Shown here: one piece after another, positions 9,518 to 19,351 of the stretch
How the letters are laid out: every line of letters starts with the position of its first letter
How positions within the stretch are numbered: position 1 is the stretch's first letter
Assembly (NCBI RefSeq): GCF_022782405.1
Contig: NZ_JALFNK010000011.1
Direction: 5' to 3' (one strand)
From: Alistipes sp.
Lineage (GTDB): Bacteria > Bacteroidota > Bacteroidia > Bacteroidales > Rikenellaceae
Length of the DNA stretch: 64,000 nucleotides
Program-made: the position numbers and the translations under genes
The notes under the pieces: model-generated
The model's input: only the letters and a program-made list of their open reading frames with translations
What the model was told of the DNA's origin: nothing
The model's database searches: none

Positions 9518-10477
9518 TCAGTGGTGAAGCGTTCCGGCATTGACCACGGGCTGTGCCGCCTCGTCGGCACAGAGCACAACGAGCAGGTTCGAAACCATCG
9601 CCGCCTTGCGCTCCTCGTCCAGCTCGACGACCTGCTCGTCGGAGAGGCGCTCCAGCGCCATGTGCACCATCGATACGGCTCCCTCGACGATCTTCTCGCG
9701 GGCGGCGATCACGGCGTCGGCCTGCTGGCGGCGCAGCATCACGGCAGCAATCTCCGGGGCATAGGCCAGGTAGTTGATTCGCGCCTCGACGACCTCGATT
9801 CCGGCCATCGCCAGACGCTCGTTCAGTTTCGTCTCGAGCTGCTCGTTGATCTCCTCGCTGTTCGAGCGCAGCGTCAGCGTCTCCTGCTTCGTGCCGTTGT
9901 CATCGTAGGCATAGCAGCCAGCCACCTGGCGCAGCGCCGCGTCGCTCTGCACGTTCACGAAGTTCTGCAGCACGTTCATGCGCGCCGAAGCCGAAACGCC
10001 CTGCCCGGGTGCGGCAGGCGCCGCGTCGATCTCGAAGACCGCCTTGTAGATGTCATCGCGCTTGATGCGCCATACGAGCACCAGACCGATCAGAATCGGG
10101 TTTCCCGTCTTGTCATTGACCTTGATCGGATCGACATTGAGGTTGCGCGCCCGCATCGAAATCGGCTTGGCCGACATGAAGGGATTGACCCACCAGAAGC
10201 CCGTCTCATAGAACGTGCCGCGGTAGTTGCCGAAGAAGACCATCACGCGCGCCTCGTTGGGTTCGAGCAGCATGAAGCCGCACAATCCGACCACCACGAC
10301 GGCAAGTCCCACGGAGCCCGTCATGACCATCCACACCCCGCCCGGCAGCGAAGCATCGGCCCGCATGGCTCCCAATACGATCAAAGCGATGAATCCGGCC
10401 AGCAGAAGCAGTTCACACGCCAGCGCCACGAATCCGTTGGCCTTCCAGCCACCATAGACGAAGTTTCGGTTCTCCAT
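9518..10477 (-). CDS. SPFH/band 7 domain membrane protein
   Basis: Two N-terminal TMs, GFWWVNPF, KVNDKTGNPI, LAYAPEIAAVMLRRQQA, AAMVSNLLVVLC. Confidence 0.92.
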   Translation of the reverse strand: MENRNFVYGGWKANGFVALACELLLLAGFIALIVLGAMRADASLPGGVWMVMTGSVGLAVVVVGLCGFMLLEPNEARVMVFFGNYRGTFYETGFWWVNPFMSAKPISMRARNLNVDPIKVNDKTGNPILIGLVLVWRIKRDDIYKAVFEIDAAPAAPGQGVSASARMNVLQNFVNVQSDAALRQVAGCYAYDDNGTKQETLTLRSNSEEINEQLETKLNERLAMAGIEVVEARINYLAYAPEIAAVMLRRQQADAVIAAREKIVEGAVSMVHMALERLSDEQVVELDEERKAAMVSNLLVVLCADEAAQPVVNAGTLHH

Positions 10478-10681: not shown

Positions 10682-12097
10682 ATGGATCTTTTGAAACACC
10701 TGCACGAAGACACGCTGACCGATGTTTTCGGCACGCGGGAGATGCGTTCGCCGGCTCCCACGGAGTTCATTCCCAAAGGAAAGACGGCCCCCGAAGTGGC
10801 TTACCAGATGGTCAAGGACGAGACCTACCCCCAGACACAGCCGCGCCTGAACCTCGCCACGTTCGTTACGACCTACATGGACGACTACGCCACGCGGCTG
10901 ATGAACGAGGCGATCAATGTCAATTACATCGACGAGACGGAGTATCCGCGCGTGGCGGTCATGTGCGGACGCTGCATCAACATCATCGCCAACCTCTGGA
11001 ACACCCCCGAAAAGGCGGAATGGAAAACCGGCGCCGTCGGCATCGGCTCCTCGGAAGCCTGCATGCTGGGCGGCGTGGCCGCCTGGCTGCGCTGGCGCGC
11101 CAAGCGCAAGGCTGCCGGCAAACCATGCGACAAGCCCAACCTGGTGATGAGCGCCGCCTATCAGATCGTCTGGGAGAAATTCTGCCAACTCTGGCAGATC
11201 GAACTGCGCACCGTACCGCTCGACGAGAAACACCCGACACTCAATATCGAAGCCGCCCTCGGCCTCTGCGACGAAAACACGATCTGCATCGTACCGATCG
11301 CCGGCGTTACCTGGACCGGGCTCAACGATGACGTCGAGGCGCTCGACAAGGCGCTCGACGCCTACAACCGCAAGACAGGATACGACATTCCGATCCATGT
11401 AGATGCCGCCTCGGGCGGCTTCATCCTGCCGTTCCTCAATCCGGGCAAAAAGTGGGACTTCCGCCTGCGGTGGGTGCAGTCGATCTCCACGTCGGGCCAC
11501 AAGTTCGGACTGGTCTATCCGGGTCTGGGATGGGTCGTATGGAAAGACAAGAAGTACCTTCCCGAGGAGATGTCCTTCTCGGTCAATTACCTCGGAGCCA
11601 GCATCACGCAGGTGGGTCTGAACTTCTCGCGTCCGGCGGCGCAGATTCTCGGCCAGTACTACAACTTCATCCGCCTGGGATTCGAGGGATACCGGGAGAT
11701 TCAGCAGAACTCGATGGACATAGCCGCCTACTGCCACCGGGCCATCGGCGAGATGACCTGCTTCCGCGTTTTCGCCAAAGAGGTGGTCAATCCGCTCTTC
11801 ATCTGGTCGCTGGACCCCGCCTACGAGAAAAGAGCCAAATGGACGCTTTTCGACCTGCAGACCCGATTGCAGCAAAGCGGGTGGATGGTGCCGGCCTACA
11901 CGATGCCTGCGGCCATCGAGCAGACGATCGTCATGCGCATCGTCGTACGGCAGGGCATGTCGCGCGACATGGCCGACATGCTGCTGCAGGACATCTGCAA
12001 CGCCGTCGGGGAGTTCGAGACGCTCAAATACCCCACGCAGTCGCGTCTGAAGTACGAAAAGAGCGAAAAACAGAAGGGCAAGGTCTATACGCACTGA
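10682..12097 (+). CDS. gadB: Glutamate decarboxylase
   Basis: NLATFVTT, IDETEYP, IHVDAASGGF, STSGHKFGLVYPG (PLP lysine), VNYLG, WMVPAY. Confidence 0.96.
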   Translation: MDLLKHLHEDTLTDVFGTREMRSPAPTEFIPKGKTAPEVAYQMVKDETYPQTQPRLNLATFVTTYMDDYATRLMNEAINVNYIDETEYPRVAVMCGRCINIIANLWNTPEKAEWKTGAVGIGSSEACMLGGVAAWLRWRAKRKAAGKPCDKPNLVMSAAYQIVWEKFCQLWQIELRTVPLDEKHPTLNIEAALGLCDENTICIVPIAGVTWTGLNDDVEALDKALDAYNRKTGYDIPIHVDAASGGFILPFLNPGKKWDFRLRWVQSISTSGHKFGLVYPGLGWVVWKDKKYLPEEMSFSVNYLGASITQVGLNFSRPAAQILGQYYNFIRLGFEGYREIQQNSMDIAAYCHRAIGEMTCFRVFAKEVVNPLFIWSLDPAYEKRAKWTLFDLQTRLQQSGWMVPAYTMPAAIEQTIVMRIVVRQGMSRDMADMLLQDICNAVGEFETLKYPTQSRLKYEKSEKQKGKVYTH

Positions 12098-12172: not shown

Positions 12173-12209
12173 AAAAGAGATGCACACTCGATGGGTGCAT
12201 CTCTTTTTT
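12173..12209 (+). terminator. Intrinsic terminator after gadB
   Basis: aaaagagatgcac/gtgcatctctttttt. Confidence 0.8.
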
Positions 12210-12327
12210 CTCGTCCGACCATCCGGACGTTTCCCCGGCCAAAGCAAACAGCATCCGCAACAGGCAGCCCTTGACCGAGCCGAAAAAAAAGCGTAACTTT
12301 ACTGCGTTTTACCGCGCAGTCCCCCGC

Positions 12328-13089
12328 ATGGAACATACATTCGACATCTTCCTGACCGTCATGGCGGTTCTGGCGCTCGTCGTCTTCATCGCCCTGCACT
12401 TCTTCGAGGCCGGATACGGCTACCTGTTCGACCGTCGTTACGGCCCGCCCGTGCCCAACCGCATCGGATGGGTCGTCATGGAATCCCCGGTATTCATTCT
12501 CATGTGCATACTCTGGGCAGCCTCGGACCGCATGCTGCAGGCCGCGCCGCTTACGCTCTTCCTGCTCTTCCAGGCGCACTACCTCCAGCGGGCCTTCATC
12601 TTCCCGCTGCTGATCCGCGGCAACTCGAAGATGCCCCTCGGCATCGTCCTCATGGGCATGCTCTTCAACACGCTCAACGCCCTGATGCAGGGCGGATGGA
12701 TCTTCTATGTCTCCCCGGCGAACTACTACGACGGATGGTTCGCAAAGCCCTACATTTACATAGGCGGCATGCTGTTCCTTGCCGGAATGGTCATCAACCT
12801 CCACTCGGACCACATCATCCGCCACCTCCGCCAACCCGGAGACACACGCCACTACATCCCCCGCGGCGGCATGTTCCGCTACGTCTCGTCGGCTAACTAC
12901 TTCGGAGAGCTGCTCGAATGGGTCGGCTTCGCCGTCGCCTCGTGGTCGTGGGCCGGAGCGGTCTTTGCCTGGTGGACCTTCGCCAACCTGGCGCCCCGCG
13001 CCGCCTCGTTGCGCCGCCGCTATGAACGGGAATTCGGCGAAGAGTTCATCCGCCTCAAACGCAAACGCATCATACCCTTCATCTACTGA
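12328..13089 (+). CDS. 3-oxo-5-alpha-steroid 4-dehydrogenase (steroid 5alpha-reductase family)
   Basis: GWVVMESP, HYLQRAFIFP, NLHSDHIIRHLR, YIPRGGMFRYVSSANYFGELLEW, ANLAPRA. Confidence 0.9.
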   Translation: MEHTFDIFLTVMAVLALVVFIALHFFEAGYGYLFDRRYGPPVPNRIGWVVMESPVFILMCILWAASDRMLQAAPLTLFLLFQAHYLQRAFIFPLLIRGNSKMPLGIVLMGMLFNTLNALMQGGWIFYVSPANYYDGWFAKPYIYIGGMLFLAGMVINLHSDHIIRHLRQPGDTRHYIPRGGMFRYVSSANYFGELLEWVGFAVASWSWAGAVFAWWTFANLAPRAASLRRRYEREFGEEFIRLKRKRIIPFIY

Positions 13090-13107
13090 AACCCCTGAAC
13101 CGCCACC

Positions 13108-14319
13108 ATGTCAAAACTCTTCACTCCCTATAAGCTGGGCCCCGTTACGCTGCGTAACCGCACGATCCGCTCCGCAGCGTTCGAATCCATGGGCAAGGAC
13201 TTCGGCCCTACCGAACAGCTCAAACAGTACCACGTCTCGGTGGCCCGCGGCGGCATCGGCATGACGACGCTCGCCTACGCCGCCGTATCGCGCAGCGGAC
13301 TGTCGTTCAACAAGCAGCTGTGGCTGCGGCCCCAGATCGTCCCGGGGCTGCGCGACATCACCGACGCCATACACCGCGAAGGGGCCGCCGCCGCGATCCA
13401 GATCGGCCACTGCGGCAACATGACCCACTACTCCACGGCCGGACAGATTCCGATCGGCGCTTCGTCGGGCTTCAACCTCTACGCCTACACGCCCGTGCGG
13501 GGCATGCGGCACAACGAGATCGAAGAGGTTGCCCGCGATTTCGGACGTGCCGTACGCACGGCACACGACGCCGGGTTCGATTCGGTGGAGGTGCACGCCG
13601 GGCACGGATACCTCATCTCGCAGTTCCTTTCGCCATACACGAACCGCCGCCGGGACGAATACGGCGGGTCGCTCGAGAACCGCATGCGCTTCATGCGCAT
13701 GTGTCTGGACGAGGCGGTCGGAGCTGCACGGGCCTGCGGCATGGCCATCACCGTCAAGCACAACATGTACGACGGTTTCAAGGGCGGCATCGAGATTCCC
13801 GAGAGCATCGAGATCGCCCGGGTCATCGAATCGTACGGCGTGGACGGCATCGTCCTCTCGGGCGGATTCGTCTCGAAGGCCCCGATGGCCGTCATGCGCG
13901 GACTGATCCCGATCTACACGATGAGCTACTACTCGCCATGGTGGCTCCGCTACTTCATCCGCTGGTGCGGACCCTTCATGATCAAGCAGTTCCCCTTCGA
14001 GGAGTGCTATTTCCTGGAAGATGCCAAAAAGTTCCGCGCCGCACTCAAGGGTCCGCTGATCTATGTCGGAGGTCTGGTGAGCCGCGAAGGCATCGACCGG
14101 GCGCTCGACGCCGGATTCGAACTGGTGCAGATGGCGCGGGCGCTGGTGAACGACCCGGCCTTCGTCGAGAAGCTCCGCACGGGCGACGAAACGACCCGCA
14201 GCGCCTGCGACCACCGCAACTACTGCATCGCCCGCATGTACTCCGTGGACATGAAGTGCTGCAAGGATTGCCCCGACCTGCCGCGGAAAATCGTCGAAGA
14301 GCTTAAGCGCCTGCCCTGA
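13108..14319 (+). CDS. NADH:flavin oxidoreductase (OYE family), candidate steroid 5beta-reductase
   Basis: ARGGIGM, IQIGHCG, EVHAGHGYLISQFLSP, RRDEYGGSLENRMR; Cys-rich C-terminus. Confidence 0.88.
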   Translation: MSKLFTPYKLGPVTLRNRTIRSAAFESMGKDFGPTEQLKQYHVSVARGGIGMTTLAYAAVSRSGLSFNKQLWLRPQIVPGLRDITDAIHREGAAAAIQIGHCGNMTHYSTAGQIPIGASSGFNLYAYTPVRGMRHNEIEEVARDFGRAVRTAHDAGFDSVEVHAGHGYLISQFLSPYTNRRRDEYGGSLENRMRFMRMCLDEAVGAARACGMAITVKHNMYDGFKGGIEIPESIEIARVIESYGVDGIVLSGGFVSKAPMAVMRGLIPIYTMSYYSPWWLRYFIRWCGPFMIKQFPFEECYFLEDAKKFRAALKGPLIYVGGLVSREGIDRALDAGFELVQMARALVNDPAFVEKLRTGDETTRSACDHRNYCIARMYSVDMKCCKDCPDLPRKIVEELKRLP

Positions 14320-15158
14320 TGAGTCTCCGAAAACATACGACATGCCGCAGGCGCGGCGCCGTACCACAAGGCACGGCATGGGCTCTCGTAACGGGTGCAG
14401 GATCGGGCATCGGGCGCTGCTATGCCCTCCGGCTGGCAGCCCTGGGATACAACCTTGTTCTGGCCGGCATCCGGCCCGAACCGCTCGAAACGGTCCGCAG
14501 GGAGATCGAGACGGCCACGCCCGGCACGCGGGTGCTGACATTCGGAATCGACCTGGCACGCATCGGCGCCGCAAAGGAGCTGTACGATTCCACCCGGCGT
14601 GAGGGGATCGACATCGACGTGCTGATCAACAATGCCGGGATCTTCTCCTTTTGCGACCTGCTCCGCACCCCTGCCGAGCGGATCGAGCGGATCATCCTCC
14701 TCCACGACCTGACCAACACGGAAATGTGCCGGCTCTATGCCGCGGACATGATACGGCGCGGCAAGGGCGGTCATATTCTCAACATGTCCTCCTATTCGTT
14801 GTGGATGCCCTTTCCGGGACTGTCGCTTTACAGCGCCTCGAAAGCCTACCTGCGCGCCTTCTCCGTAGCCTTCGCCAAGGAGGTCCGCGAGGCGGGAATC
14901 CGCGTTACCGCCGTATGCCCGGCCGGTGTGGCTACCGATCTCTATGGACTGACGCCCCGCTGGCAACGTATCGGGCTGCGCCTGGGCGTACTTATCTCGG
15001 CCGACACCTGCGCCCGTCGGGGACTGCGGGGGCTGTGGCGCGGGCGCCGCACCATCGTACCCGACTGGTGGAACCGCCTCTGGATCCCGCTGTGCAAGAT
15101 GCTGCCCATGGCGCTCATCGCTCCGCTGCGGCGTTTTACGATGCAATTCCAGAAATAG
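14319..15158 (+). CDS. SDR oxidoreductase, candidate 3beta-hydroxysteroid dehydrogenase
   Basis: TGAGSGIG, NNAG, YSASK; start overlaps the upstream stop. Confidence 0.85.
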   Translation: MSLRKHTTCRRRGAVPQGTAWALVTGAGSGIGRCYALRLAALGYNLVLAGIRPEPLETVRREIETATPGTRVLTFGIDLARIGAAKELYDSTRREGIDIDVLINNAGIFSFCDLLRTPAERIERIILLHDLTNTEMCRLYAADMIRRGKGGHILNMSSYSLWMPFPGLSLYSASKAYLRAFSVAFAKEVREAGIRVTAVCPAGVATDLYGLTPRWQRIGLRLGVLISADTCARRGLRGLWRGRRTIVPDWWNRLWIPLCKMLPMALIAPLRRFTMQFQK

Positions 15159-15244
15159 ATATTTCCCGGTCCGATCTTCCGCAACGGGATTTTTCGTATC
15201 TTTGTGCCGCCCGAAACGGGCCAGAACAAGAAGCAATCCATCCT

Positions 15245-16279: not shown

Positions 16280-17353
16280 TCATAACCGGTGATAATGGCA
16301 GCCGAGCAACATGCCCCGATCGTCGCGCAGGTGCATGCCGCCACCCTGGCAATAACGGAACATACGACAGTCTCCGCACATTCCCCGGCGCATCCATTCC
16401 CGGTCGCGGAAGGGTTGGAAACGGGTCTGCCACACCTCCCAGAAACGGTCGCGGTAGATATTTCCCTGATTGAAGTTGGCACGGATCGACGTGCAGCCCG
16501 AAATAGCCCCGTCCACCCGGACGGAGGCCACCGAGATTCCGGCGGCACATTGATAAAAATGATCGCGGACCTCGGCCTCGTAACCACCGAGAAAACCTTC
16601 GCAGGCATAGCTGGCATCGATACGCCCTTCACGGCGCGTACGTCGGATGAAATCGAGCAACGTCCGGAATTCGGCATCCGAAAGACGGAGTTTCGGCTCC
16701 TCCTTGGCACGCCCGGCCGGAAAAATGGAGAAAAGCCGCCAATGACGGACCCCTTCGGCGATGAGCATATCGCGAAAAGCCTCCAACTGCGGGACAAGGG
16801 AGGCCGTAACGCAGGTTACGATATCGAAGGAGAGCGACGGCTCGCGCACGACCATCCGCACGGCTTCGAGCGCCTGTTCATAGCTGCGCGGATTGCCTCG
16901 CAACCAGTTGTGCTCGGAAGCGAATCCGTCGAGGCTTACGGACAAACTTCGCAAGCCGGCCGCAAGCAGGCTGCGCAGCCGGTCCGGAGTCAGCGCCAGT
17001 CCGTTGGTAACCATCCCCCACGGATAACCGCGGCGGGAAATTTCCATTCCGGCCCGTTCGAGATCCGGGCGTACCAATGCCTCGCCGCCCGAGATGACGA
17101 CGAGCACCTGTGCCGGATCGACATGGGGCGTTACCTCCTCATCGAGAACGCGCAGGAAATCTTCCAAAGGCATGTCCGCCACCCCGGGATCCGTACGGCA
17201 GTCGCTGCCGCAGTGACGGCACGAGAGATTGCAACGCAGCGTACACTCCCAAAAGAGCGTATCGAGACGATGTTCGCGCACCCGCTCCCGATACAGGTCT
17301 GAAAAAAGATCGAGGGCCCATTTCTTGCGGAGCCCCAAACGCCGGCCGCGCAT
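16280..17353 (-). CDS. Radical SAM/SPASM enzyme, resembling the Bacteroidota rSAM/lipoprotein system (TIGR04133-like)
   Basis: LFWECTLRCNLSCRHC (CxxxCxxC), ISGGEAL, GMVTNG, SVSLDG; SPASM-type CAAG...GC...CGDCRMFRYC; 3 nt downstream of a small lipoprotein gene. Confidence 0.9.
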   Translation of the reverse strand: MRGRRLGLRKKWALDLFSDLYRERVREHRLDTLFWECTLRCNLSCRHCGSDCRTDPGVADMPLEDFLRVLDEEVTPHVDPAQVLVVISGGEALVRPDLERAGMEISRRGYPWGMVTNGLALTPDRLRSLLAAGLRSLSVSLDGFASEHNWLRGNPRSYEQALEAVRMVVREPSLSFDIVTCVTASLVPQLEAFRDMLIAEGVRHWRLFSIFPAGRAKEEPKLRLSDAEFRTLLDFIRRTRREGRIDASYACEGFLGGYEAEVRDHFYQCAAGISVASVRVDGAISGCTSIRANFNQGNIYRDRFWEVWQTRFQPFRDREWMRRGMCGDCRMFRYCQGGGMHLRDDRGMLLGCHYHRL

Positions 17354-18032: not shown

Positions 18033-18115
18033 GCCCGTTTGAAAAATATGTCGTATTTTTGGGCGGTTTTAGTCCGAAAAACAGGTTCAAAAAACACAAT
18101 AAACCTATCAAGATC

Positions 18116-19351
18116 ATGAAAGAAGCTATCGCAATCCTGACCGGCGGCGGACCGGCCCCCGGCATGAACACCGTAGTGGGCAGCGTCGCCAAGACGTTCC
18201 TCCGCAAAGGTTACCGCGTAATCGGCCTGCACGAAGGCTATACGGGACTGTTCAACCCCTCGCCCCGCACCGTGGACATCGACTATCCGATGGCCGACGG
18301 CATCTTCAACCAGGGTGGATCGTTCCTGCAGATGAGCCGCTTCAAGCCGACCGATGCCGATTTCGAAAACAACTTCAACCTCAAGTTCTTCACCGACAAC
18401 AACGTGAAACTCCTCGTTACGGTCGGCGGAGACGATACCGCCTCGACGGCCAACCGTATCGCCAAATTCCTCGAGGCCAAGAAGTACCCCATCGCCAACA
18501 TCCACGTTCCGAAGACCATCGACAACGACCTGCCCCTTCCGAAGGGCACGCCCACGTTCGGTTACGAGTCGGCCAAGGACAAGGGTGCCGTCATCGCCCG
18601 CGCCGTCTATGTGGACGCCCGTACGAGCGGCAACTGGTTCGTGCTGGCTGCCATGGGCCGTTCGGCCGGACACCTCGCCTTCGGTATCGGTGAGGCCTGC
18701 CACTATCCGATGATCGTCATCCCCGAGATGTTCAACAAGACGGAGATCACCGTCGAGAAGATCGTGAACCTCGTGATCTCGTCGATCATCAAGCGCAAGA
18801 TCATGGGTATGGACTACGGTGCCGCCGTCATCTCGGAGGGCGTCTTCCACGCCCTTTCGGACGAGGAGATCCGCAAGAGCGGCGTACACTTCACCTACGA
18901 CGAGCACGGACATCCCGAGCTGGGCAAGGTTTCGAAGGCACACATCTTCAACGAGATGATCGAGAAGAAGCTCAAGGAGCTGGGTATCAAGGTCAAGAGC
19001 CGCCCCGTAGAGCTCGGCTACGAAATCCGCTGCCAGACCCCGATTGCTTACGACCTGACCTACTGCTCGGAGTTGGGTATCGGCGTGCACAAGCTCTTTG
19101 CCGAGGGCAAGACGGGCTGCATGGTCTATGTGGATTCCGAGGGCAACGTATCACCGCTCTACCTGAAGGACCTGCAGGACCCCACGACGGGCAAGATTCC
19201 GCCCCGTCTGGTCGATATCAACTCGGACAAGTTCACCTCGGTAGTCGAGAACATCCTCAACGCTATCACGCCGGCCGATTACGAAGCCGCCAAGAAGTAT
19301 GTGGCCAACCCCGAGGAGTACGACTTCCACAAGATTCTCAACTGGAAATAA
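18116..19351 (+). CDS. 6-phosphofructokinase family, PPi-dependent signature
   Basis: GGGPAPGMN, GGDDT, PKTIDND, MGR; promoter TATTTTTG at 18054-18061. Confidence 0.9.
   Translation: MKEAIAILTGGGPAPGMNTVVGSVAKTFLRKGYRVIGLHEGYTGLFNPSPRTVDIDYPMADGIFNQGGSFLQMSRFKPTDADFENNFNLKFFTDNNVKLLVTVGGDDTASTANRIAKFLEAKKYPIANIHVPKTIDNDLPLPKGTPTFGYESAKDKGAVIARAVYVDARTSGNWFVLAAMGRSAGHLAFGIGEACHYPMIVIPEMFNKTEITVEKIVNLVISSIIKRKIMGMDYGAAVISEGVFHALSDEEIRKSGVHFTYDEHGHPELGKVSKAHIFNEMIEKKLKELGIKVKSRPVELGYEIRCQTPIAYDLTYCSELGIGVHKLFAEGKTGCMVYVDSEGNVSPLYLKDLQDPTTGKIPPRLVDINSDKFTSVVENILNAITPADYEAAKKYVANPEEYDFHKILNWK

Follow-up and report, generated by a model that had tools for sequence, protein, structure and literature searches.

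Within a 64,000-nucleotide stretch of an Alistipes sp. genome (contig NZ_JALFNK010000011.1; the whole stretch is called the window below), three genes follow one another on the + strand as a compact operon. In the published Bacteroidota cluster for isoallolithocholic acid (isoalloLCA), the first two have clear orthologues, for a 5-alpha-reductase (5AR) and a 5-beta-reductase (5BR), while the third encodes a short-chain dehydrogenase (SDR) that belongs to a clade, here called SDR-A, different from that of the SDRs (SDR-B) found in Phocaeicola and Parabacteroides clusters. The operon probably acts on 3-oxo bile acids and steroids by remodelling their A ring, and it ends in this dehydrogenase of a different clade.

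12328..13089, + strand: 5AR, membrane steroid 5-alpha-reductase of the SRD5A family (P0001, 253 aa; PF02544)
13108..14319, + strand: 5BR, short Old Yellow Enzyme (OYE) flavin ene-reductase (P0002, 403 aa; PF00724)
14319..15158, + strand: SDR-A, classical short-chain dehydrogenase (P0003, 279 aa; PF00106)

All three open reading frames (ORFs) lie on the + strand at exactly the coordinates given in a preliminary description of this DNA, and the tight coupling reported there is borne out in every detail, with a gap of 18 nt between 5AR and 5BR (13090-13107) and a stop/start overlap of 1 nt between 5BR and the SDR gene (14319). Of the 80 loci whose 5AR is most similar to P0001, mostly labelled Alistipes or Rikenellaceae, 64 have the same order, 5AR-5BR-SDR-A, and six more carry 5AR-5BR-SDR-A-SDR-B, showing that the three-gene arrangement is not due to chance.

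Conservation of the two reductases

The published cluster has been described biochemically in B. dorei (Bacdor_03089-03091) and genetically in P. merdae (PARMER_04016-18). Bacdor_03090 takes 3-oxolithocholic acid (3-oxoLCA) to 3-oxo-delta4-LCA, Bacdor_03091 takes 3-oxo-delta4-LCA to 3-oxoalloLCA, and isoalloLCA is made by purified Bacdor_03089; deletion of PARMER_04016-18 leads to the loss of all three products (Li et al., bioRxiv 10.1101/2021.01.08.425963). The Alistipes operon resembles this cluster in having 5AR followed by 5BR on one strand with tight coupling, a 5AR of the same clade, a close 5BR homologue and a gut Bacteroidales host.

P0001 matches the Pfam family PF02544 (Steroid_dh) at 1.2e-43 and aligns over its full length with the bacterial SRD5A structure 7c83 (PbSRD5A; 1e-56) and with human SRD5A2 (7bw1; 1.6e-42). 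Counting through the PDB alignment, E52 and Y85 of P0001 correspond to E57 and Y91 of SRD5A2, the Glu and Tyr that bind the substrate, and both residues are invariant across 22 orthologues. P0001 differs from these two proteins in sequence, with about 40-50% identity as judged by eye, and in lying in an operon with an ene-reductase. It is the sole PF02544 gene in the host genome, and shares 47-60% identity with the 5AR of Phocaeicola and Parabacteroides. In a phylogenetic tree, P0001 falls within a clade of operon-linked 5AR proteins with a support of 100 in the Shimodaira-Hasegawa-like approximate likelihood ratio test (SH-aLRT), and homologues that stand alone (35-41% identity) group in a clade of their own; this tree and the SDR tree described below come from quick searches and carry SH-aLRT support only. 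The operon-linked clade includes Phocaeicola massiliensis, P. faecalis, P. plebeius, P. fibrisolvens and Bacteroides gallinaceum, along with Coprobacter, Barnesiella and a Parabacteroides whose 5AR lies in the 90% cluster of P. johnsonii. Two tiers of 5AR homologues emerged from a sample of 300 genomes within the order, one with at least 47% identity and usually an adjoining OYE gene, the other with 33-41% identity, and neither an OYE nor an SDR gene adjoins 5AR within the 16-kb flanks of ten fetched loci at 35-41% identity.

P0002 matches PF00724 (Oxidored_FMN, Pfam) at 3.5e-53, its nearest solved relative is a YqjM-type OYE (2e-35), and it shares 60-64% identity with the 5BR of Phocaeicola and Parabacteroides. 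Its HAGHGYL motif (H163-A-G-H166-G-Y168), which places it among the OYEs, is invariant across 13 orthologues; from knowledge of the family, we take H163 and H166 to be the H-x-x-H/N pair that binds the substrate carbonyl, together with the Tyr. We considered P0002 as a BaiCD protein, a two-domain Fe-S flavoenzyme, and rejected this assignment, since its score on the profile NF041087 was 168.7 bits, where the cut-off is 825, and it matched only profile positions 2-257 of 642. BaiCD and BaiH, the bile-acid 5-beta-reductases of Firmicutes, have a homologous N-terminal OYE flavin barrel, but P0002 is 403 aa long versus about 640 aa and lacks their second domain, which binds flavin adenine dinucleotide and NAD(P). 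NCBIfam holds no specific model for P0001, P0002 or P0003.

Orthology, shared clade, gene order and the catalytic Glu/Tyr pair thus uphold the proposal in the preliminary description that the first two genes correspond to 5AR and 5BR in the Bacteroidales cluster already described.

Also invariant across the 13 orthologues of P0002 are three C-terminal cysteines, C367, C373 and C384 (C-x5-C-x10-C), along with C102 in a GHCGN motif. To our knowledge, classical OYEs do not have such C-terminal cysteines. They may form a metal or Fe-S site, which, if true, would bear on how electrons exit when 5BR runs in the oxidative direction.

Two clades of third-gene dehydrogenase

P0003 is a classical SDR (PF00106 adh_short in Pfam, 1e-39). 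In the clade alignment, residues T25, G26, G30 and G32 of the TGxxxGxG motif are invariant, as are the catalytic triad S158, Y171 and K175 and three residues of the NNAG motif (N104-N105-A106-G107), of which N105 is nearly invariant. An AlphaFold2 model shows a Rossmann fold with a mean predicted local distance difference test score of 90.8. Over its full length, the model finds its best structural matches in human HSD17B13 of the SDR16C family (template modelling scores 0.75-0.79), which is also the best match in sequence; the likeness includes the C-terminal helices, but at 24-29% identity it is a resemblance rather than membership and assigns no substrate. Searches of PDB sequences, Foldseek and ESM Atlas with SDR-A returned generic SDR matches, with no hint of stereochemistry. 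The residue after strand 2 varies within the clade (Arg, Asn-Glu or Asp), and we therefore claim no cofactor preference. One genome of the same genus (G381:C3:55835-56890) contains an SDR-A match in two pieces, covering residues 4-148 and 151-279, which may reflect a frameshift or an insertion.

Two SDR clades accompany 5AR and 5BR in Bacteroidales: SDR-A, which includes P0003, and SDR-B, which includes the Parabacteroides SDR. All-against-all comparison gave identities of 40-63% within SDR-A and 40-59% within SDR-B, versus 21-33% between the clades. A 57-row SDR tree sets them apart with SH-aLRT values of 99 (SDR-A) and 100 (SDR-B), and the other SDR paralogues of the host genome branch between the two. 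P0003 shares only 25-28% identity with the SDRs from the clusters of Phocaeicola and Parabacteroides, and its clade is well separated from theirs, so the suggestion in the preliminary description that the third gene is the known 3-beta-hydroxysteroid dehydrogenase (hereafter 3-beta-HSDH) fails on orthology. Compared with the published cluster, the Alistipes operon thus has a 5AR of the right clade with 5BR directly after it, but SDR-A in the place of the SDR-B-type 3-beta-HSDH. The reference set for SDR-B consisted of congeneric Phocaeicola proteins and a Parabacteroides proxy, used in place of the Bacdor_03089-91 and PARMER_04016-18 proteins themselves.

The distribution of the two clades follows from surveys that are samples of genomes, and absences hold for the genomes searched. 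We reached the Phocaeicola loci via the family of the genome that carries locus L107. In ten loci from this large family, which contains named Phocaeicola (five named), SDR-B is present and SDR-A is not; nine of the ten show the full order 5AR-5BR-SDR-B, and in the tenth (L147) no 5AR ORF was found. The Parabacteroides locus L116 likewise reads 5AR-5BR-SDR, with an SDR only 26% identical to P0003, and the proxy genome of Parabacteroides, when searched, yielded no SDR-A. With SDR-B as query, a homology search gave names of Parabacteroides and Tannerellaceae and no others. Conversely, the host genome of the operon (2.26 Mb, 99.9%-complete) contains about seven SDR ORFs, none of which is like SDR-B. 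Its proteins match, exactly or almost so, proteins that bear the names Alistipes shahii or uncultured Alistipes. Counts per genus were taken from a 150-genome sample of the family: in the genus of the host (14 sampled), 5AR and SDR-A were each present in 13 genomes and SDR-B in none, whereas genus g236 of the same sample had 5AR in 15/15, SDR-A in 11/15 and SDR-B in 15/15.

Four-gene clusters, in which two SDR genes follow 5BR in the order A then B, are found in Coprobacter, Barnesiella and other loci including metagenome-assembled genomes of Muribaculaceae. The three Alistipes genes are orthologues of the first three in these clusters; the fourth, SDR-B, is missing from Alistipes, in its cluster as well as in the rest of its genome. 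The coexistence of SDR-A and SDR-B in the four-gene form suggests that the two are not redundant. A further arrangement was seen in genus g218 of the same family, where SDR-B follows 5AR directly at a distance of a few bases with no 5BR between them (G353:C28:50310-51894, locus L134; G325:C46, locus L135; locus L099 looks alike).

Operon boundaries and neighbouring genes

According to the preliminary description, the operon is bounded on one side by a gadB terminator and on the other by a separately promoted gene for a haloacid dehalogenase (HAD) hydrolase; both bounds are confirmed, by a hairpin with a T-run and by a separate -7 box, respectively.

9518-10477, - strand: SPFH/Band-7 protein
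10682-12097, + strand: pyridoxal phosphate-dependent decarboxylase, glutamate-decarboxylase-like (gadB-like; PF00282), with its own terminator
about 12178-12210, + strand: hairpin and T-run, terminator of the gadB-like gene and 5' boundary of the operon (AGATGCAC ... GTGCATCT then CTTTTTT; inner stem computed)
12270..12301, + strand: candidate Bacteroidetes-type promoter, by eye (TTG 12271-12273; -7 box TAacTTTA 12294-12301)
15164..15195, + strand: weak terminator-like hairpin and TTTTT, 3' of SDR-A, 3' boundary of the operon
15246 (start ATG): downstream HAD hydrolase; a Bacteroidetes -7 box without mismatch, TAtcTTTG, precedes it at 15197-15204
16096-16070, - strand: strong terminator
16280-17353, - strand: radical S-adenosylmethionine/SPASM protein
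18059-19351, + strand: phosphofructokinase

The Bacteroides promoter consensus is TTTG...TAnnTTTG. The candidate -7 box of 5AR, TAacTTTA, lies 27 nt upstream of the ATG and has, by eye, one mismatch to this consensus. A sigma-54 type -24/-12 element was also sought by eye upstream of 5AR and rejected on account of wrong spacing. In the Parabacteroides locus L116, the ORF of an OmpR-type response regulator (PF00072 and PF00486; L116:8602-9303, - strand) overlaps the start of 5AR and is a candidate regulator of an inducible Parabacteroides cluster, whereas nothing like it lies beside the Alistipes operon. Elsewhere in the host genome, a protein of the choloylglycine-hydrolase family (PF02275, 2.1e-64; G000:C8:156430-157362) is a candidate bile salt hydrolase.

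Possible functions of the operon

For the Alistipes operon, we infer substrates, reaction directions and end product as follows. By orthology, 5BR would run in the oxidative direction and convert a 3-oxo-5-beta steroid, for example 3-oxoLCA, to the delta-4-3-ketone. The membrane-bound 5AR, using NADPH, would then reduce the delta-4 bond from the other face, giving a flat 3-oxo-5-alpha product (3-oxoalloLCA). SDR-A would most likely oxidise or reduce a steroid hydroxyl/keto group, either 3-beta, 3-alpha or at another carbon. On the strength of orthology, isomerisation from 5-beta to 5-alpha at the 3-oxo level, leading to 3-oxoallo products, is well supported. Because its clade differs from that of the characterised 3-beta-HSDH, however, SDR-A cannot be assigned a position or stereochemistry, and since the enzyme demonstrated to make isoalloLCA is not the one that the third gene encodes, the end product in Alistipes is uncertain; it is equally likely that SDR-A is a second 3-beta enzyme and that it is 3-alpha-specific or acts on another position. 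Accordingly, from the isoalloLCA pathway that the preliminary description assigned to this strain, the route to the 3-oxo-5-alpha intermediate is well supported, but the final 3-beta step is not, as no SDR-B was found in the genome. Its proposal that the strain may also act on host steroids finds support in the literature, but for the P. merdae cluster, which a 2026 preprint extended to corticoid-derived steroids (bioRxiv 10.64898/2026.08.21.746344).

Should SDR-A be a non-orthologous but working 3-beta-HSDH, the operon would hold the full route that turns 3-oxoLCA into isoalloLCA, which we consider doubtful. SDR-A does occupy the same operon slot, directly after 5BR, strains without a 3-beta-HSDH homologue made isoalloLCA (Li et al., bioRxiv 10.1101/2021.01.08.425963), and in a culture-collection paper most Bacteroidales are credited with a neighbouring '3-beta-HSDH orthologue'. 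The low identity between the two clades (21-33%) and their separation in the tree argue against such an equivalence, as does their coexistence in four-gene clusters, which speaks against redundancy. Secondary accounts of Sato 2021 point the same way: isoalloLCA came from P. merdae, O. laneus and B. dorei, twenty other Bacteroidota strains ended at 3-oxoalloLCA (PMC10382948), as most 5AR-positive strains are said to do, and '5AR and 3-beta-HSDH-II' are required for isoalloLCA (PMC11487953). The wording of the latter implies that Sato, too, saw two HSDH-like genes. An equally doubtful alternative is that SDR-A is a 3-alpha-HSDH, either opening the pathway (LCA to 3-oxoLCA) or closing it towards alloLCA. 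A complementary role of this kind would account for the joint retention of SDR-A and SDR-B, and the Parabacteroides proxy genome is without SDR-A; but sequence and model give no stereochemistry, and no 3-alpha-HSDH activity of Alistipes was found in the literature consulted. More broadly, SDR-A may tentatively be a new steroid dehydrogenase belonging to the A-ring cluster of Bacteroidales, with an activity unlike the known 3-beta-HSDH, for example the 3-alpha-HSDH that Bacteroidota reportedly lack.

Lipids other than steroids (polyprenol, fatty enoyl or endogenous membrane lipids) are very unlikely as substrates of the operon, and equally unlikely is a role as a general stress module that detoxifies enones beside gadB. 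The SRD5A superfamily takes in polyprenol and enoyl reductases, P0001 weakly matches an enoyl-CoA reductase in the PDB (5e-8) and OYEs are promiscuous; however, P0001 is far nearer to steroid SRD5A1/2-type structures (1e-56 and 1.6e-42), it shares a clade with clusters shown to be active on bile acids, and the gadB gene has its own terminator. Several points weigh against our preferred reading of A-ring remodelling that ends in a different dehydrogenase: identity to the nearest characterised genera is only 47-64%, the literature consulted contains no biochemistry on any Alistipes enzyme, and SDR-A or another SDR could supply the final step to isoalloLCA. Additionally, the equation of the characterised 3-beta-HSDH with SDR-B would follow from genus-level conservation via Phocaeicola and the Parabacteroides proxy, and the strain-level data of Sato 2021 are second-hand.

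The cluster as such is already published, and the Alistipes form varies modestly on this known system. A review of Alistipes connects the genus with 3-oxoalloLCA (PMC13233536), and other papers count Alistipes among carriers of the published cluster; in the literature consulted, we did not find it stated that Alistipes has an SDR-A-only form without the characterised dehydrogenase type. A 2026 paper describes a 'less conserved 3-beta-HSDH with two extra helices', which may be the same mix-up of SDR-A and SDR-B.

A 3-alpha-HSDH activity of SDR-A, if true, would mean that the Bacteroidales bearing it do not depend on partners, Eggerthella for example. IsoalloLCA and flat bile acids related to it have effects on regulatory T cells and are inhibitory to Gram-positive pathogens, gene counts of the cluster serve as markers in inflammatory bowel disease and ageing cohorts, and Alistipes is abundant in centenarians. 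Should the Alistipes cluster close with a different dehydrogenase, it may yield 3-oxoalloLCA or an allo-form in place of isoalloLCA, and markers based on '3-beta-HSDH' would miss or mislabel it. If SDR-A is indeed a new steroid dehydrogenase, metagenomic counts of 'isoalloLCA genes' that pool both SDR types would be misleading, and taxa with SDR-A, among them Alistipes, Coprobacter and Barnesiella, could on their own start the pathway at LCA, or make alloLCA-type (3-alpha,5-alpha) products.

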